From positions 649,374 to 713,373 of the forward strand of contig JAFLYY010000001.1 in NCBI GenBank assembly GCA_029785825.1: a stretch of 64,000 bases of DNA, given 5' to 3'. A model generated the notes under the pieces. That model was not told where the DNA came from. It searched no databases and saw only the letters and a program-made list of their open reading frames with translations. The DNA comes from Nitrososphaerota archaeon. GTDB lineage: Archaea > Thermoproteota > Nitrososphaeria > Nitrososphaerales > Gagatemarchaeaceae. A program made the position numbers and the translations under genes. Positions 5,210-57,827 of the stretch are shown here, piece by piece; positions within the stretch are counted from its first letter, which is position 1; every line of letters starts with the position of its first letter.

Positions 5210-5930
5210 ACGCCGAGGGTGGCTGCGGGGCGGAGGCTCCGCCCTCCTCCAGTGAGTCGTAAGGGCAAAGGGCCGTGGGTCCTGTCGGATGGCCCCACAC
5301 TGTGGACTGCGTCCTGTGGAACGTAGGCAATGCGCGGAGCCCCGGGCTTTCTGGCGCACCTAGGGTCCTTTAGGCTGGATTCCAGATTTCGGGAAAACCC
5401 CCTCCTAAATAGTAAATTCCCCTTCGGCGGCCAGAGGCGTTGCCAGTGAACGGGCATCTCAGCGGGGGACAGATCTGTGATGCTCTGTAAGAACGCATCA
5501 GGACAACTCCCTCTCCGCGCGCTAGCGCTCATCCTGTCCCTTCTCATAGTTTCGAGCAGCGCATCATCGTTAGTTTCTGCCAGTACGCTCTTTTCAGGGT
5601 CGGCGTCCGCGGCTTTTACCGGATGATAAAGCGGCTTCGGCCCTAGAGGACCTCTGATAGCCCGTCCATCCAGCGACAAATCTGGCCCTGCATATTCGAG
5701 TTTCGAGCTCGTAGAGTTACGACAGCATCCGCCCTGGCGCGTTACGAGAAAATGTTCCGCAAGTTGCTCCCCCCGGGGGAACAGCCAGGGGGTTTTCGGA
5801 GGTGCAAAGTCAGGTGGCGCATAGGGCGCATCATCAGGGCTATGGAGGTGAGGGAAGCGCCAGCTTGGGTGCGAAACCATCACTCGGGAAAACAATCGAC
5901 CGGTGAACCACGAAGGTTTAAAGGTGAGAT
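5210..5930. other. ORF-poor, lower-G+C 0.7-kb stretch; candidate structured non-coding RNA locus, identity unresolved
   Basis: The plus strand is rich in stop codons in all three frames. The only long open frame is the minus-strand 5053..5895, which has Arg/Pro/Ser/Trp-rich non-protein-like composition and overlaps srp19. Hairpins are numerous (for example GGGGCGGA-GGC-UCCGCCCU at 5227-5245). Hand counts of two 60-nt lines gave 34/60 and 31/60 G+C. Confidence 0.3.
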
Positions 5931-6167
5931 TTGGGCCGGAAAATTCTCTTGTTTCAAGTGGGCACTATCCTCCTTCAGGCGAAGAGCGGCCGTCTGATTG
6001 TCCGCCTGACGAAAGAGGTGAAGCCCGGGGCGTTCGTCTACGATGACGGCAGGAGGAAGCTTGGAAAGGTGGTGGAGCTCATCGGCCCGGTCAGGGCCCC
6101 ATACGCGTCCGTCGCGGTTGTGAGCAGCAGAATCGGGAAGCCGGGGGATCCGGCGTTCGTGGAATGA
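5931..6167 (+). CDS. gar1: H/ACA ribonucleoprotein component Gar1
   Basis: The TTG start is preceded by AAGGTGAG. KSGRLIVRL..PGAFVYDDGRRKLGKVVELIGPVRAPYASV is the Gar1 barrel signature. Confidence 0.85.
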   Translation: MGRKILLFQVGTILLQAKSGRLIVRLTKEVKPGAFVYDDGRRKLGKVVELIGPVRAPYASVAVVSSRIGKPGDPAFVE

Positions 6168-6174
6168 TAAACCA

Positions 6175-7122
6175 GTGAGTCTCTGGAGCCAGGGGAGAGA
6201 CGACGGGTTCAGGACGTCCTGCCCGGTCTGCGGCAACAGGCTGATCGGGGACGCTGAGAAGGGGGAGCAGGTCTGCCCCACCTGCGGGTATGTGACCGTG
6301 GCTCCGGCTGACTCGGGCCCCGAGTGGAAGGCCATGGATCTGGAGGAGAAGAACCGCAGGGTGAGAGTAGGGTCCCCCACGACCCTGGCGCTTCACGACC
6401 TGGGGCTGTCCACGGAGATCAGCAGGACCATGCGGGACTCCCACGGCAAGTACCTCGACCCGGCCATGAGAGCGACCGTGGAGAAGATGCGGAAGTGGCA
6501 GAGCAGGACGAGGACGGTCAACAGCGAGGAGAGGGGGCTCTCCAACGTCCTTTCGAAGATAAGCGAGCTCTGCGAGGCGCTCAACCTCCCCGACAACGTC
6601 GCCGAGACCGCGGCCCAGATCTACAGGACGTCGGCCAAGATGAAGGTGGCGAAGAGCAAGTCGATACTGGGGATGACGGCCGCGACGGTCTACCTCGCCT
6701 GCAGGAAGTGCGGGGTCTCCAGGACCCTCAAGGAGGTGGCCAGGGCCGCAGGGATGGAGAAGGGGAACGTCGCCAGGTACTTCAGGCTGGTCCTCAAGGA
6801 GGTGGAGAAGGAGTACGTCCCTCCCCCGTCCGTCGAGAAGTACATCTCGAAGCTAGTCAACATGGCGAAGATAGACCCCAAGGTGGAGATCCTCGCCCTC
6901 AACCTCTCCCGCAAGACAAGCGACTCCAAGATCTCCAGCGGCAAGGCGCCCGCCGGACTCGCGGCGGCATACGTCTACCTCTCTTCGGTGATGGTAGGCG
7001 AGCACCTCCCGCAGAGGGAGGTCGCCGAGTTCGCCGAAGTCACAGAGGTCACCGTCAGGAACAGGTGCAGGGAGATCTTGGACAACTATGTCATAAGACA
7101 GGAGTTCATGCCGGCGAAATGA
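6175..7122 (+). CDS. tfb: Transcription initiation factor B (TFB/TFIIB)
   Basis: An N-terminal Zn ribbon (CPVCGN..CPTCGY) is followed by a linker and two cyclin-fold repeats (AAQIYRTSAK.., LAAAYVYLSS..). Confidence 0.93.
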   Translation: MSLWSQGRDDGFRTSCPVCGNRLIGDAEKGEQVCPTCGYVTVAPADSGPEWKAMDLEEKNRRVRVGSPTTLALHDLGLSTEISRTMRDSHGKYLDPAMRATVEKMRKWQSRTRTVNSEERGLSNVLSKISELCEALNLPDNVAETAAQIYRTSAKMKVAKSKSILGMTAATVYLACRKCGVSRTLKEVARAAGMEKGNVARYFRLVLKEVEKEYVPPPSVEKYISKLVNMAKIDPKVEILALNLSRKTSDSKISSGKAPAGLAAAYVYLSSVMVGEHLPQREVAEFAEVTEVTVRNRCREILDNYVIRQEFMPAK

Positions 7123-12522: not shown

Positions 12523-13182
12523 CTAGCCAGCCTGGATCGCGTATACCAGCGCGTGGTCCTTCTCGAATGGGCTGAGCTCTGTCACGCTCCTGACCTTGAA
12601 CCCGGCGCCTTCGAGCTTGGCCGTCTCGTCCGCGTACACCCGCTCCGGCTCCTTCAGGACGTCGATGCTCCTCGCCTTGACCACCAGGAGGAGAGTCCCG
12701 CTCCCCGCGAGGAGGGCCCTGCAGTTCGCGATGGCTATCTCTGTCTGGTCCGGCTGGGCTATGTCGCAGTACACCACGTCAACCTTCGAGATCGAGTACT
12801 TCGATGGGTCCCTGGCGTCGGCGACGAAGGGGACCACGTTCCTCCTTTCCCTGGCTACGCGTTCCACGAACTCCCTGGCTACCCTGGGAGAGAACTCCAC
12901 CCCTATCACCAGCCCGCTGGGGCCGACGAGGTCGGAGACGTGCGAAGGGGTCGTCCCCGTCGACGCCCCTAGGTAGAGTACCCTGGACCCTTCGCGGACG
13001 ATGTCGTCTGGGAGCCCCTTCAGCATGGCTGCGGCCAGCTTGCTCCTGAAAGGGTCCCAGGTCCGGAACTCGACCCCTCCTCTGACGACGAGGTCCTCGT
13101 TGTACACCCTCTTCCCCGGCGCCAGGTTCATCGTCAGAAGGGCGCTCCTTCCGTTCCTCTCCTCCCTGAGGAGGCGCGTCAT
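12523..13182 (-). CDS. flpA: Fibrillarin (C/D box rRNA/tRNA 2'-O-methyltransferase)
   Basis: VLYLGASTGTTPSHVSDLV, RNVVPFVADARDP and DVVYCDIAQPDQ are present. ATG 13182 overlaps the nop5 stop (ATGA on the minus strand). Confidence 0.92.
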   Translation of the reverse strand: MTRLLREERNGRSALLTMNLAPGKRVYNEDLVVRGGVEFRTWDPFRSKLAAAMLKGLPDDIVREGSRVLYLGASTGTTPSHVSDLVGPSGLVIGVEFSPRVAREFVERVARERRNVVPFVADARDPSKYSISKVDVVYCDIAQPDQTEIAIANCRALLAGSGTLLLVVKARSIDVLKEPERVYADETAKLEGAGFKVRSVTELSPFEKDHALVYAIQAG

Positions 13183-14093
13183 CTCCTTCTGAACTTCTCT
13201 CGCCTTTGAGGCCTTCCTTCCTTCCTCGGCCTCCCGCTGGGCTCCGGCTTCCGCCGGGGAGGCTCCTTGTACTTCTCCTTGATGCTCTCGAGCCTCTTGT
13301 CCAGCCCTGCCTTGATGGAAGCGTCCTCGGCCCCGCGGTAGTAGTCGACCCGCGCGGCGATGGCTATCTTGTTGGCCAGGGTCCTCGCTATCTTCCCCCG
13401 CTGCCACTTGGGGGCGGTGTGGACCGCCTGGTGCTGGAAGAGGATGCCGTGCTTCGGAGGCCTCGCCCCCGTCCTGAGGGACCTGAACAGGGCCTTCTCG
13501 GCCCCCAGGATCTGGATCGTGCTCGCCGGGAGGACCGCCAGCCTGTCCAACCCTCCGGCCTTGGCCATGAGCCTGGCGCCTATGGTGGCTCCCGCCACTT
13601 CCGCGACGTTCGGGGCGACCTTCTTCATCTGTGACCCGACGTACTCGTCGAGCCCGCCCCTGAGGTTGCTCAGCTGCACCGCCAGCGCGGCGAGCGCTTT
13701 CACCCTGCCGATGTCCCCGTCCGAGATGGTCCCGCCCTTGGACCTGTCCCTGGCCTCCAAAATCGCGTCGACCTTCTTGTCGGTGAACCCCCTGCCGGCT
13801 AGGGCCTCCTTCGAGAACCCCTCCCGTCCCCCTATCTCTGAAATCATCTTGCAGAGGGCGATGTTGTCCTGGACCATCTGGATCAGCTCGGGAAAGTGGA
13901 GCCCGTACCACTCGGAGGCACGGGTCGCCGTCACGTTGAGGTGCTTGTCAGTGTCGTCCAGGGCCTGTATCGCCTGGACCAGGTGCAGGTCGGGGCGGGA
14001 TGATGCTTCGCGTATCGCCGCTTCCGCTTCGGCTATGCTCTTCTGGCGGAGCGCCTCGAACTCAGGGGATCCGGGCGTCGGTTCGATGGACAA
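13179..14093 (-). CDS. nop5: C/D box sRNP protein Nop5 (Nop56/58), apparently without the N-terminal domain
   Basis: The Nop domain is present (AGATIGARLMAKAGGLDRLAVLPASTIQILGAEKALFR..PKHGILFQH) with a Lys/Arg-rich tail. It forms an operon with fibrillarin. Confidence 0.88.
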   Translation of the reverse strand: MSIEPTPGSPEFEALRQKSIAEAEAAIREASSRPDLHLVQAIQALDDTDKHLNVTATRASEWYGLHFPELIQMVQDNIALCKMISEIGGREGFSKEALAGRGFTDKKVDAILEARDRSKGGTISDGDIGRVKALAALAVQLSNLRGGLDEYVGSQMKKVAPNVAEVAGATIGARLMAKAGGLDRLAVLPASTIQILGAEKALFRSLRTGARPPKHGILFQHQAVHTAPKWQRGKIARTLANKIAIAARVDYYRGAEDASIKAGLDKRLESIKEKYKEPPRRKPEPSGRPRKEGRPQRREKFRRR

Positions 14094-14129
14094 CTTGAGG
14101 GCGCTCGACCCTCACGTGATTAAAGGGTT

Positions 14130-14474: not shown

Positions 14475-14667
14475 TAAGACGACCGCCCTCCTGGCGAAGA
14501 CAGCTGCGGAACCTCCTCCCTCGACTGTCCCCGGACCGGCCGGGGCGTTTTATCGGTTGTCCCAGTGGTCTCAGGGCGCCCCTGACCCGGAGCGCGTCTG
14601 ACTGAAAGCCGGGAGGAGCACGTCCCCGGCGAGAAGGCGGGGGCCGCCGGGGCCCGGACCGTCCTCA

Positions 14668-14680
14668 GAAAGATTAAATG
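14668..14680 (+). promoter_or_regulatory. BRE/TATA-like element GAAAGATTAAATG upstream of the eS30 gene
   Basis: The AT-rich box lies about 40-50 nt upstream of ATG 14720. A strong SD, AGGAGGT, sits at 14703-14709. Confidence 0.4.
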
Positions 14681-14719
14681 CGGAAGACGGTCGCCTGTAC
14701 TCAGGAGGTTAGAGCAAGA

Positions 14720-14918
14720 ATGCCGACCCACGGAAGTCAGCAGACCAGCCTCAAACTGGCTGCCTTCAGTCACGAAGGCTGGCAAGGTTAGATCCCAGAC
14801 TCCGAAACTCGAGGGGAAACCAAAGGAAAGCAAGATCCCCAAAGTCAGGAACAAGCGGACCTACGAGAAGCGCTTCACCCTGAAGCGCAAGCCCGGCCAG
14901 AACTGGATCAGACAGTGA
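14720..14918 (+). CDS. rps30e: 30S ribosomal protein S30e, interrupted by a 31-nt intervening sequence (14739-14769)
   Basis: SD plus ATG encode MPTHGS, and this frame then hits TAG at 14789-14791. The conserved core [35 protein letters not shown] is in the +1 frame, ending at TGA 14916-14918. The span is 199 nt (3n+1). Removing 14739-14769 gives [19 protein letters not shown]..., 55 aa. Confidence 0.85.
14739..14769 (+). other. Candidate BHB (HBh'-type) intron in the rps30e mRNA
   Basis: GAAG (14733-36) pairs with CUUC (14764-67). The 3-nt bulges are UCA (14737-39) and AGU (14768-70). The inner helix is GCAG (14740-43) with CUGC (14760-63), plus CCA (14745-47) with UGG (14757-59). Cleavage after the second bulge nucleotide recreates a CUC Leu codon. 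Confidence 0.7.
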
Positions 14919-16510
14919 CAGCGCAGGCTCTGGACAGGCTCCAGGAAGCCGCCTCGTACATAGCGGAGCTAGTCGCCAGGGGGACGGTCCGCACGAGGAG
15001 CGACCTGGAGAAGCTGAAGAAGAGGGCCGCGGCGGACTTCCAACTCGACAGGTACCCTTCGAATGCGGAGATCCTTGCCCACCTTCCGCCGGGGGACAGG
15101 GACCGGAGCGCGGGGCTCCTGCGCGTCCACCCGAGGCGCAGCGCCTCAGGCATCGTCGTCGTCACCGCCTTCTCGGCTCCCTTCTCCTGCCCCCACGGGA
15201 CCTGCGTCTTCTGCCCCGGAGGGCCGCGGCAGGGGACCCCCCAGTCGTACCTGCCGCAGAGCCCGGGGATGCAGTCGGCGCTCGAGGTCCGGTTCGACCC
15301 GCGCCTGCAGGTCGAGAAGTCACTCGCCAAGTACGTCGCCAACGGCCATGCCGTGGGGAAAGTGGAGGCCATCATAGAGGGGGGGACGTTCATCGCGCTC
15401 GATCCGGGATACCAGACCGCGTTCGTGAAGGGGATCTACGACGGCCTCAACGGCGCGGTGTCCGGGACGCTCTCAGAGTCCCAGACCGCCAACGAGACGG
15501 CGGCCAGCAGGTGCGTGGGGCTGACCCTCGAGTCGAAGCCAGACTGGTGCAGACCGAGGGACGTGGACCTGATGCTCGGGCACGGGATCACGAGGGTCGA
15601 GATAGGGGTCCAGAGCCTGAGGCCTGAGGTGTTACTGCGCAGCAACCGCGGGCACACGGTCGAGGATGCGGCGAAGGCGTTCCAGGTCGCCCGGGACGCA
15701 GGGCTGAAGATCACGGCCCACATGATGCCCGGCCTCCCCGGAGCCACCCCTGACGGAGACCTCGAGGACCTCCGCAGGCTCTTCGATGACGAGGCCTTCC
15801 GCCCCGACATGTCAAAGCTCTACCCGACGCTTGTGGTCCCTGGGACGGCGCTGGCGAAGCAGTTCAGCGCGGGACTCTACAAACCGTATCCCTTTGAGAC
15901 GGTGGTCGAACTCCTCAGCGACATGAAGGGCTTCGTCCCCCCCTGGCACAGGATCATGCGGATACAGAGAGAGATACCAGCCGCCGAAATAGAGGGCGGG
16001 GTGAAGGACGGGAACCTCAGGCAGCTCGTCCTGCAGAGGGCCAGGGAGAAGGGGATAACATGCCGGTGCATCAGGTGCAGAGAAGTCCTTCTGAGGGACC
16101 CGGAGGCGCTCGGCAGGGACGACTCCCTGACCTACAGGGAGGCTCGCTACACCGCCTCGGGCGGGGAGGAGGTCTTCGGGTCGTTCGAGTTCGAAAGGTC
16201 CGGGACCATCGCAGGCTTCGTCCGGATGAGGGCCCCTTCTCCCCTGGCCCATAGAACGGAGATGAGGGGGGGCGCGGTGGTTAGGGAGCTCAGGGTATAC
16301 GGGGTGGTGGTGGGAATAGGGAAGAAGGAGGACGCCGCGTGGCAGCACAGGGGGATCGGCGCGTCCCTTTTGGAGCGCATGGAGGAAGCGGCGTCGTCAG
16401 AGTTCGGCGCCAGGAAGGTCCTCGTGATAAGCGCCGTGGGGACCAGAGGGTACTACCGGAGGCTCGGGTACGAAAGGGACGGCCCGTACATGGCGAAGGG
16501 CCTTCGCTAA
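14915..16510 (+). CDS. elp3: Elp3-type radical SAM / acetyltransferase (tRNA wobble uridine modification)
   Basis: The radical-SAM cluster motif [12 protein letters not shown] is present with a C-terminal GNAT region ([14 protein letters not shown]). GTG 14915 overlaps the rps30e stop (GTGA). Confidence 0.88.
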
Positions 16511-48418: not shown

Positions 48419-49294
48419 CTATATCCTTGCGGTCGTGCCGTCGAGGGTTCTCCAGGACGCGCGGCCCCCCTTGACGGAGACCTTCCCCGGGCGCATGTGC
48501 CCTGGCATCACGACGGCGTCCTCGGCGGAGGCCAGCCTGTAGAAGCGCGCCCTGCTCGACTCCATCTCCCTCGGCTCGTTCCAGGAGGCGACCAGCTCGG
48601 GATGCTCAACCTCCTCCTCTAGATGGATGAGGTCTCCGACGCAGTAGCAGCTCATCCCCTTCGACTTCACCGCGACCACCTGGTGCCCCGGGCTCTCCCC
48701 CGGGAACGGCTCGACGCTCACCCCCCCGCCGAGGTCTTTGGCGCCGTCGAGGAGCGAGAGCCTCCCCGCTTGCTGGACCGCCACGAGGGTGTCGACGACG
48801 TCAGGGTCCCGGACCTCTCTGGCTTCGGCGATGGAGCTCATCCGCCAGTCCTTCTCCGGGATTATGCAGTCAGCCTTCGGGAAGGTAGGAACGGCGTTCC
48901 CCCCCGCGCCCCGGGTCGCTCCAGCGAAGTGGTCGAAGTGGAGGTGGGTGACTACGACGTGGGTGACTTCCGTCGGGGCGACCCCGACCGACTCCATCTG
49001 GGCGGTCAGCGCGGGCGGGGGCGCGTACCCCGCCGGAGGCGTGAAGTGCCCAGGGGCAACGAGCCGGGAGTAGTCGCTGGGGTCCACCACGACCTTGACC
49101 CCTCCTGATTCTATCAAGAACGACTGGGCGGGGAACCCCGCCTTCTTCCCTATCTTCTCTTCCGGGAAGTAGCGCGAGAGGTCCACGCTTTTGTCGTAGA
49201 CTTCGTCCAGCCCGAGCAGTATGTCTCCCACGTTGAAGACCGTGACCCTGGCCTCCCCCACCTTCAGCGCTAGAGGGCCCATCGACCTAGGCAC
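48419..49294 (-). CDS. MBL-fold metallo-hydrolase
   Basis: The HxHxDH motif VVVTHLHFDHFAG is present. Confidence 0.75.
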   Translation of the reverse strand: MPRSMGPLALKVGEARVTVFNVGDILLGLDEVYDKSVDLSRYFPEEKIGKKAGFPAQSFLIESGGVKVVVDPSDYSRLVAPGHFTPPAGYAPPPALTAQMESVGVAPTEVTHVVVTHLHFDHFAGATRGAGGNAVPTFPKADCIIPEKDWRMSSIAEAREVRDPDVVDTLVAVQQAGRLSLLDGAKDLGGGVSVEPFPGESPGHQVVAVKSKGMSCYCVGDLIHLEEEVEHPELVASWNEPREMESSRARFYRLASAEDAVVMPGHMRPGKVSVKGGRASWRTLDGTTARI

Positions 49295-49844
49295 GCCACC
49301 AGTCGTACCTCAGGAAGTCGATCGTCTTCCTGTCCTTGTCTGAGATGGCGATGATGAACTGCTTCCTCACCGTGGTGGCCAGCCTCCCCGACCTCACCAT
49401 CGAGGTCGCAGTCATCTTCGAGTCGGGGGAGACCACCTGGACGATGTAAGGGGCGTGGTCTATCCCCGGCCCGTGTTCGTAGACCGCGAAGTCCGACCCG
49501 AACTTTATCCCCGGGGTCACCACGAAACCGGCTTCCCTGAGCTTCCTGTAGACCTGGAACTTCTCGGCGAAGTCGTTGTAGGATGCCTCGCACAGCTGGT
49601 GGAGCTTCTTGGGGGCGATCTCCTTCCCCGAGGCGTCTTCCACCCCTATCACCTTCTTGGTGGTCAGGTAGTACCCTTCCATCAGGTCTAGGATGAGGGG
49701 GGCGTCGAACAGGAAGTCCTTCGGCTTCGGGATGCCAAGGGGCTTGCCGTAGTACCCTTCTTTGAACAGCCTGCGGGACTCCTCGATGTCCCAGACCACT
49801 ATCCTGTTCTCGAAGAGCCTGCCCCTGGCCCGCGCCCCGGGCAC
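49287..49844 (-). CDS. endA: tRNA-splicing (BHB) endonuclease
   Basis: A 185-aa protein with GYYGKPLG. The catalytic Tyr/His/Lys contexts are FAVYEHGPGIDHAPYIVQV and RKQFIIA. Confidence 0.88.
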   Translation of the reverse strand: MPGARARGRLFENRIVVWDIEESRRLFKEGYYGKPLGIPKPKDFLFDAPLILDLMEGYYLTTKKVIGVEDASGKEIAPKKLHQLCEASYNDFAEKFQVYRKLREAGFVVTPGIKFGSDFAVYEHGPGIDHAPYIVQVVSPDSKMTATSMVRSGRLATTVRKQFIIAISDKDRKTIDFLRYDWWRA

Positions 49845-57409: not shown

Positions 57410-57539
57410 CTGGGGAGCCCCGGCCGGCGGTCTTAATCTGCTTTGAGCTGGTGCGGAGGACCGACCGCAGACTACCCAGAACCGCCACAGGAAAGACTTA
57501 TGTTCCGACCCAGTCGGGCGAGACCAACTCCTGGTCCCC

Positions 57540-57827
57540 TTGTCCCCAACTAAGACCGTCAGGAAGTCGAGACAGCCGTCGCTTACAGGTTTTGAGGTCA
57601 AGATAGGCCCCCCGAAGCTCACCCGTTTCGAAAGGGCGCGGATAGTCGGCGCGAGGTCGCTTCAGCTCGCCATGGGCGCCCCGGCTTTCGTACCACTGGA
57701 AGGGGCGTACAAGGGGCCGATAGCGACCGCGATGCTCGAGCTGGAAGCTGACGCGCTCCCCATCTCCATCCGAAGGTCGCTCCCCAACGGCCTTACCCAG
57801 GACATCCCCATCAAGGCGCTCGCCTAG
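57540..57827 (+). CDS. rpoK: DNA-directed RNA polymerase subunit K (Rpo6)
   Basis: The LTRFERARIVGARSLQLAMGAP signature is present. The start is TTG. Confidence 0.85.
   Translation: MSPTKTVRKSRQPSLTGFEVKIGPPKLTRFERARIVGARSLQLAMGAPAFVPLEGAYKGPIATAMLELEADALPISIRRSLPNGLTQDIPIKALA

Follow-up and report, generated by a model that had tools for sequence, protein, structure and literature searches.

The nearest described counterpart of the element analysed here is an intron with the motif known as bulge-helix-bulge (BHB) in the pre-mRNA of cbf5, the gene for a pseudouridine synthase, which Watanabe et al. in 2002 and Yoshinari et al. in 2006 reportedly found in Crenarchaeota. In the openly accessible literature, coding-region BHB introns are named only for cbf5 of Desulfurococcales and Sulfolobales (PMC7714728; Yokobori et al. 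2009, PMC2738675), in agreement with the initial annotation of the present locus, which called cbf5 essentially the sole such case. In 2020, after more than 20 years, the cbf5 intron was still stated to be the only archaeal intron in a coding region (PMC7714728). The cbf5 genes of Cenarchaeum and Nitrosopumilus have no intron (PMC2738675). Another BHB intron, verified in vivo and in vitro, lies in the 5' untranslated region (UTR) of the HVO_1309 mRNA of Haloferax volcanii (Schwarz et al. 2020, PMC7714728). Here we analysed a stretch of 64,000 nucleotides (nt) from a Nitrososphaerota archaeon (assembly GCA_029785825.1, contig JAFLYY010000001.1, positions 649,374 to 713,373), referred to as the window and numbered from its first letter, in which rps30e, the gene for ribosomal protein eS30, is split by an insert of 31 nt. 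We regard it as highly likely that the eS30 coding region carries a 31-nt archaeal BHB intron that is spliced from the mRNA.

The predicted eS30 intron and the cbf5 intron are both short, protein-free coding-region introns with a BHB at the exon-intron junctions; the cbf5 lineages have a heterotetrameric tRNA splicing endonuclease (EndA), and one is predicted for the eS30 lineage. In both cases the intron is patchily present among relatives and is routinely mis-annotated as a frameshift or missed. The two differ in their hosts: cbf5 encodes an RNA-modifying enzyme in thermophilic Desulfurococcales and Sulfolobales, whereas the eS30 intron sits in a ribosomal protein gene of Nitrososphaeria that are rich in GC and come from metagenomes of peat, soil and groundwater. 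Furthermore, eS30 has up to two predicted introns, 16 nt apart, in a gene of 165 nt, the first of them 19 nt from the start. Splicing of cbf5 was shown experimentally, whereas the eS30 case is known here from genomic sequence. The eS30 element would share with the HVO_1309 intron that an mRNA serves as substrate of the tRNA splicing endonuclease and that removal is apparently needed for efficient expression. The HVO_1309 intron lies, however, in an untranslated leader and leaves the reading frame uninterrupted, and its host is a euryarchaeon with another EndA type. We found no prior report of an eS30 intron, or of a BHB intron in a ribosomal protein gene, in the openly accessible literature, and the Gagatemarchaeaceae genome paper (PMC10640624) does not report an eS30 intron. 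rps30e is thus a candidate second host gene for a coding-region BHB intron, in a different archaeal class from cbf5, and EndA-dependent mRNA splicing would be no one-gene curiosity of thermophilic Crenarchaeota.

Frame 0 from the ATG at 14720 encodes a peptide of 23 amino acids (aa) that ends at the TAG at 14789-14791, and the eS30 core is carried by the +1 frame up to the TGA at 14916-14918; the whole span is 199 nt. Deletion of 14739-14769 joins C14738 to U14770-C14771, which creates the codon CUC for Leu7 and a 55-aa product. This product matches Pfam PF04758 Ribosomal_S30 over residues 3-51 (E = 1e-12, 48.5 bits at a cut-off of 27) and contains the conserved HGSL(A/T)KAGKVRxQTPK motif. Intact S30e proteins of 55-56 aa from Nitrososphaerales/Thaumarchaeota metagenome-assembled genomes share 87-95% identity with this product and read the motif contiguously. 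The initial annotation had given the same start, stop, frames, span and product, all of which are found on the sequence (with a Shine-Dalgarno spacing of 9 nt), and its claim that removal of exactly these 31 nt restores eS30 is borne out by the Pfam match. The predicted spliced junction reads ...CACGGAAGUC/UCACGAAGG..., also written 5'-ACCCACGGAAGTC/TCACGAAGGCTGG-3'. eS30 is a conserved ribosomal protein in TACK archaea (PMC3082918; PMC3189178).

A loose definition of the BHB motif gave 3,717 hits on both strands of the window, which amounts to about 2e-4 per fixed pair of cut sites. A BHB-like motif in isolation is therefore weak evidence, and what counts is its coincidence with the protein requirement. 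Only six deletions of 31 nt yield an eS30-like 55-mer. One of these six restores the conserved Leu7, and it is the sole one having BHB geometry. The pairings and bulges proposed at the outset (Table 1) are all present, and the inner stem has in addition a bulged A14744 between its two halves as well as the CCAG/CUGG pairing. The two 3-nt bulges lie on opposite strands, with identical spacing in 31 sequences of this intron (intron 1) and in 13 sequences of a second intron of the same gene (intron 2, see below). From the canonical BHB rule and the restoration of the open reading frame (ORF) we infer the cut positions within the bulges; the bonds 14738/14739 and 14769/14770, which the initial annotation had already named, are supported by relatives through covariation, ORF restoration and intronless junctions.

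The outer exon-exon helix of intron 1 is a lone invariant pair, G14732-C14771, compared to at least 2 base pairs (bp) in the strict hBHBh' form, and intron 1 is therefore assigned on its predicted fold to the relaxed HBh' form, as initially labelled. A distal pairing of GCC 14722-24 with GGC 14777-79 was also predicted by RNAalifold, and since it is invariant it is uninformative. Intron 1 resembles the HBh' introns of crenarchaeal and thaumarchaeal pre-tRNAs in motif geometry, in the cut after the second bulge nucleotide and in its comparably small size. A weak outer helix is tolerated there by EndA with the crenarchaeal specificity loop (PMC3241643; PMC5829648). The difference is that the eS30 host RNA is a translated mRNA and offers no tRNA body to help recognition. 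In addition, Gly-Ser has to be encoded by the exonic strand of the central helix, and therefore synonymous codons are frozen.

This freezing, and the fold itself, can be followed in relatives. Scanning of genome and metagenome collections gave at least 160 further loci (80 loci were kept from the genome scan), which were sorted by how far apart the codons for His4 and Gln16 lie. Among the loci listed, 125 are uninterrupted, 24 have an insert of 31 or 32 nt at the window's site, 10 combine a 31/32-nt insert with one of 20 nt, and three have the 20-nt insert only. A clade of Nitrososphaeria (Thaumarchaeota) has intron 1 at the identical site and phase in 34 loci, which amount to 31 distinct sequences. 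Judging from how the contigs are named, these stem from independent assemblies, several assemblers and many samples, and they include the complete chromosome OY970211.1. Alignment of the 31 sequences needs a single indel, which lies inside the intron. The intron is 31 or 32 nt long and its loop is unconserved; such free drift of loop and length is unlike a translated insert, which would not tolerate it. The initial annotation had pointed to related rps30e loci as a place to look for intronless alleles, and these were found in close relatives, with precisely the predicted junction.

In the 31 sequences, 97.2% of cells pair in the stated intron-1 structure, and six pairs have changes on both sides. 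None of 500 shuffles, a control that ignores phylogeny, matches the observed percentage paired, the number of double-change pairs or the covariation score. When the 3' partners are slid by 1-3 columns, pairing falls to 24-48% of cells. The central helix pairs in 100% of cells. One of its pairs (15/48 of alignment A1) is A-U in 14 sequences and G-C in 17, so that GAAG/CUUC becomes GGAG/CUCC; this switch is a synonymous Gly5 GGA/GGG wobble in the exon matched by U or C in the intron. In the inner stem 95.7% of cells pair and five of nine pairs are doubly changed, for example from GCAG/CUGC to GCGG/CCGC or GCAC/GUGC. With the alignment as sole input, RNAalifold returned the same central helix, 3-nt bulge and inner stem. 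The comparison shows selection on the RNA around the split for the predicted 4-bp helix, two 3-nt bulges and intronic stem-loop. Codon usage points the same way: Ser6 is AGT in 34 of 34 intron-1 alleles versus 18 of 128 alleles without intron 1, and for Leu7 the codon is CTC in 34/34 versus 14/128. Judged by these counts, exonic bases within the BHB are frozen solely where intron 1 is present.

Selection is also seen on the protein. Removal of the predicted introns leaves an intact ORF of 54-55 aa in all 37 interrupted loci. Over codons 2-55 of the spliced gene, pairwise comparison of interrupted homologues gave 12,268 synonymous versus 3,142 non-synonymous codon differences, and over exon 1 (codons 2-6, 36 interrupted homologues) 960 synonymous differences and no non-synonymous one. 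As measured by these codon differences, protein-level purifying selection is shown by both exons, each in its own frame. It follows that frame 0 is the one translated in exon 1 and frame +1 the one in exon 2, so that the exons must be joined. No second intact eS30 copy was seen: among the 80 loci kept from the genome scan, no contig that carries an interrupted gene, the complete chromosome OY970211.1 included, is represented twice, which argues against a second copy, short of proving its absence.

The second intron has a BHB of its own. Intron 2 is 20 nt long, occurs in 13 loci and splits the Lys12 codon into AA and A, as in GGGAA/ACUCUCAAUGAGAGCCCUUA/AGUC; the window does not have it. Alleles with both introns contain a middle micro-exon of 16 nt. 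Intron 2 forms a complete canonical hBHBh' motif: its outer helix has 3 bp (GGC with GUC or GUU), its central helix 4 bp and its inner stem 4-5 bp, and there are two bulges of 3 nt. Pairing holds in 96.8% of cells, six of 12 pairs are doubly changed and the covariation is 0.506 versus 0.185 for shuffles. The central helix pairs in 100% of cells, with changes on both sides in two of its four pairs. Examples of double changes in intron 2 are AGGG/CCCU to UGGG/CCCA and CACC/GGUG to GACC/GGUC.

Several observations weigh against splicing of the eS30 mRNA. Firstly, in contexts of 76-141 nt a competing hairpin beats the BHB-constrained fold of the window sequence by 1.1-2.8 kcal/mol, and the pairing probability of the BHB central helix is below 3%. 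The single-sequence fold of 14715-14790 likewise does not give the BHB, and the region has a z-score of -1.2. In 24 of the 31 relatives the central helix is within the minimum-energy fold. Because the window sequence alone is thermodynamically unconvincing, the case rests on comparison with relatives, and there many BHB columns are invariant and informative neither way, and the shuffles leave phylogeny aside. Secondly, the exon-exon helix by the 3' bulge comes down to the one invariant G-C pair, hence a relaxed motif. Thirdly, of the exact spliced proteins predicted for 20 interrupted genes, 19 have no match in a collection of 15 billion proteins. The single match, to the product of the two-intron locus L110, traces back to L166 and L167, which are intronless genomic contigs, and not to cDNA; these intronless alleles are 89-93% identical at the nucleotide level and encode exactly the protein predicted for the two-intron allele. 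Lastly, no EndA beta subunit is encoded within the 64-kb window. The competing hairpin pairs CCAGCCU 14745-14751 in the intron with AGGCUGG 14776-14782 in exon 2. It was rejected as a conserved alternative, since it needs the exon-2 GGCUGG, which is absent from most relatives.

The EndA alpha subunit is encoded within the window. The initial annotation had placed an EndA gene at 49287-49844, where both Pfam EndA domains were found; the strand, which it did not state, is minus. The closest solved structures are the alpha chains 3P1Z_B of A. pernix (1.6e-42) and 2ZYZ_B of P. aerophilum, as well as that of S. tokodaii, all of them from heterotetrameric enzymes. The alignment runs gaplessly through the specificity loop and places K40 and K42 opposite K44 and R46 of A. 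pernix. In Crenarchaeota this loop and its lysine confer cleavage of relaxed motifs (PMC3241643). By these matches, the window EndA is a predicted crenarchaeal-type alpha subunit of a broad-specificity endonuclease.

With such an enzyme, expression of eS30 could proceed as follows. Transcription would start from the gene's own promoter-like element and yield a short leader holding the Shine-Dalgarno sequence. The pre-mRNA would fold by pairing of exonic GAAG (14733-36) with intronic CUUC (14764-67), and a heterotetrameric (alpha-beta)2 endonuclease, with its alpha subunit from 49287-49844 (-), would cut after C14738 and after G14769. An RtcB-type ligase would then join the exons, forming the Leu7 codon C/UC, and the intron would probably be circularised. 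The spliced mRNA would give the 55-aa eS30, the unspliced mRNA only the 23-aa peptide ending at TAG 14789. This scheme resembles the splicing of HAC1/XBP1, which is also spliceosome-independent: a structure-recognising protein endonuclease excises a small coding-region intron, a tRNA-splicing ligase (tRNA ligase/RtcB) joins the exons and the reading frame changes. There, however, the nuclease is IRE1, the motif consists of paired stem-loops and the system is a regulated stress switch in eukaryotes, and the resemblance is one of analogy, not of homology between the elements.

Cleavage need not lead to an mRNA for eS30. EndA might cut the BHB and the exons might be rejoined inefficiently, so that the element would act as an endonucleolytic off-switch for the transcript of eS30 and the downstream ELP3-family gene. 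BHB motifs of rRNA precursors and of a 5' UTR are cut by EndA in non-splicing reactions (PMC7714728), and no ligated product has been observed for eS30. Still, we consider an off-switch very unlikely. The cut sites are placed such that ligation recreates Leu7 and the frame, which holds for 37 of 37 genes and for two different introns; the protein-level selection on exon 1 is sensible only if exon 1 is joined to exon 2; and no other eS30 gene was seen among the 80 loci kept.

It is scarcely probable that the ribosome instead reaches the eS30 frame by translational recoding without splicing, either by a programmed +1 frameshift through the insert or by bypassing, as in phage T4 gene 60. The window sequence by itself would allow a frameshift, as its insert is 3n+1 long and contains a stable hairpin, and with no frame-0 stop before 14789 a +1 shift anywhere in 14738-14788 reaches the eS30 frame. 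Yet no one event fits all alleles, because an insert of 31 nt needs +1 and one of 32 nt -1 or +2, inserts of 20 nt also exist, and two-intron alleles are in frame overall (51 nt) yet contain an in-frame stop. A frameshift would also put about 10 variable residues inside the most conserved eS30 motif. Furthermore, the Leu7 codon is split over the gap (C14738 + U14770-C14771), and the covariation tracks BHB geometry, with the two 3-nt bulges at exactly the required bonds. A hop between the matching AGU codons at 14735-37 and 14768-70 was rejected since it lands out of frame.

That the locus is a decaying pseudogene with a disabling insertion, or the insert an assembly or sequencing artefact, and eS30 is not made from it, is barely credible: the source assembly indeed has no call for eS30, and +1-frame calls of relatives are truncated, but 31 distinct sequences, by contig name from many samples and several assemblers, share the insertion site, purifying selection on both exons is strong, the helices covary, no second copy was seen on the interrupted-gene contigs, OY970211.1 included, and the conservation of eS30 in TACK archaea also speaks against its loss.

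Two other kinds of element were considered for the insert. Group I and group II introns have a catalytic RNA core of hundreds of nt that is recognisable by Rfam models. A self-splicing intron was rejected, as the insert measures just 31 nt and the Rfam scan found no family at gathering score anywhere in the window; a tRNA scan of the window found nothing either. A locally repeated or mobile element was also rejected, since covariance model R1 of intron 1 found the eS30 site alone in the window and in 17 relatives' loci. In the window, R1 scored 63.1 bits (E = 1e-16) at eS30, with no other site below E = 0.4.

The history of the split eS30 gene can be traced through its neighbourhood. All interrupted genes lie within a DUF488 / eS30 / ELP3 arrangement, and the ELP3 of interrupted loci is 57-92% identical to that of the window, which makes the clade a deep one. 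A rough neighbour-joining tree, built on about 200 ELP3 residues, shows it as monophyletic versus an intronless thaumarchaeal locus and Bathyarchaeia. The four states (intron 1 only, both, intron 2 only, none) are interspersed in this tree, with two-intron lineages on early branches, and we tentatively propose an ancestral intron pair with repeated precise loss. The window has a G+C content of 64% and the relatives' contigs come from peat, soil and groundwater. Group I.1c / Gagatemarchaeaceae are non-ammonia-oxidising, with genomes of 54-62% G+C (PMC10640624), and in G+C and sample sources the window and its relatives resemble this group.

The natural series of one-intron, two-intron, intronless and micro-exon alleles would allow the study of intron gain and loss, and would open the rules of BHB recognition outside tRNA to direct study. 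It also raises the mechanistic question of how splicing would compete with coupled transcription-translation when the intron begins 19 nt from the start codon. It is conceivable that other protein-coding genes of the clade also contain BHB mini-introns and micro-exons, discarded by current annotation. Because the source assembly has no eS30 call and the calls of relatives are truncated, gene inventories of this abundant lineage of soil and peat, and analyses that rely on its ribosomal proteins, would be wrong at the eS30 locus.

Table 1. Features of the split rps30e locus in the window, related genes, and loci with intron 2.
Feature	Position	Strand	Details
Promoter-like element AGAAAGATTAAAT	14667-14679	+	archaeal BRE/TATA type; about 40 nt 5' of start codon; predicted from sequence
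Shine-Dalgarno AGGAGGT	14704-14710	+	9 nt 5' of ATG 14720; GGAGG kept in relatives
rps30e exon 1	14720-14738	+	ATG CCG ACC CAC GGA AGT C = MPTHGS + first Leu7 base
Intron 1 (predicted)	14739-14769	+	31 nt, AGCAGACCAGCCUCAAACUGGCUGCCUUCAG
rps30e exon 2	14770-14918	+	UC finishes Leu7; ends NWIRQ; TGA 14916-18
Central BHB helix, 5' strand GAAG (exonic)	14733-14736	+	4 bp with 14764-14767
Central BHB helix, 3' strand CUUC (intronic)	14764-14767	+	pairs with 14733-36
5' bulge UCA	14737-14739	+	predicted cut C14738/A14739; 3 bases invariant in 31/31 sequences
3' bulge AGU	14768-14770	+	predicted cut G14769/U14770; A-R-U in all sequences
Inner stem-loop h'	14740-14763	+	GCAG 14740-43/CUGC 14760-63; CCAG 14745-48/CUGG 14756-59; loop 14749-55
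ELP3-family radical-SAM/acetyltransferase gene	14915-16510	+	Pfam ELP3_N, Radical_SAM, Radical_SAM_C
EndA catalytic (alpha) subunit gene	49287-49844	-	185 aa; tRNA_int_endo_N 5e-15, tRNA_int_endo 9e-30 (Pfam)
Intron 2 together with intron 1	e.g. L020:3055-3074		loci L020, L027, L033, L092, L103, L104, L110, L117, L124, L130
Intron 2 alone			loci L023, L059, L076

The GTG start of ELP3 overlaps the eS30 TGA (GTGA, 14915-14918), and relatives share both the synteny and this overlap of 4 nt. Because of this overlap eS30 and ELP3 are probably co-transcribed and translationally coupled, and termination at TAG 14789 on unspliced mRNA could lower ELP3 translation too. It is possible, if rather doubtful, that the introns serve as a control point which ties the output of eS30 and the coupled ELP3 to EndA/RtcB capacity. 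If so, this would be an archaeal counterpart of regulated unconventional mRNA splicing, by enzymes that also mature rRNA and tRNA. Upstream, the promoter role of AGAAAGATTAAAT is a prediction, in which we considered that a motif AAAGATTAAAT or AAAGATTAAT stands at equal distance 5' of eS30 in relatives L001-L006, L009, L013, L015, L016, L020, L027 and L033.

As for existing annotation, no gene is called between DUF488 and ELP3 (window 14475-14914) in L165, a source-assembly record of this locus (GCA_027320055.1, DAHVMB010000009.1). The gene calls P0009, P0013 and P0027 of relatives are truncated and start in the +1 frame (RWLPSITKAGKV...), and their contigs carry the same insert. A further call, P0124 (in the cluster of P0002), is a JGI 'hypothetical protein' of 899 aa that clusters at 90% identity with 55-aa S30e proteins; it could be a fusion by read-through, or an artefact of gene calling, at an eS30 locus.

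A search for other BHB-interrupted ORFs in the window left 335 of the 3,717 motif hits after ORF filters, which is too unspecific. A frame map by GC position and inspection of ten adjacent same-strand ORF pairs (Gar1, TFB, ABC permease, ProRS, RpoK and others were named) gave separate genes and no second split gene in the window, in a check that is blind to in-frame introns and to introns near a 5' end. No Cbf5 (GTLDP motif) was found within the window. The window is rich in genes for RNA processing and expression (5928-7122, 12523-14111, 49287-49844, 57447-57827); Gar1, TFB, fibrillarin and RpoK were identified by inspection of translations, Nop5 and EndA by Pfam. GatD and GatE genes follow ELP3.

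Some members of the clade have a LAGLIDADG-like ORF directly 5' of eS30 (L167:95-724, L166:821-1348, L085:44-589, L103:45-665 and L117:49-651), with a remnant at L023:2751-3029; there is no such ORF in the window. The ORF of L167 scores 26.5 bits with Pfam LAGLIDADG_3 and 24.5 bits with LAGLIDADG_1, both above the cut-offs. Its hosts include intronless as well as two-intron members of the clade. Lastly, where eS30 should start, L007, L023, L059, L076 and L085 have the codon ACG, L087 has ATA, and L150, L154, L156, L158 and L159 have TTA. In L007, L023, L059 and L076 a Shine-Dalgarno sequence stands about 8 nt 5' of the ACG, with no in-frame ATG, GTG or TTG nearby. These ACG, ATA and TTA codons could reflect non-canonical initiation or a further undetected feature.

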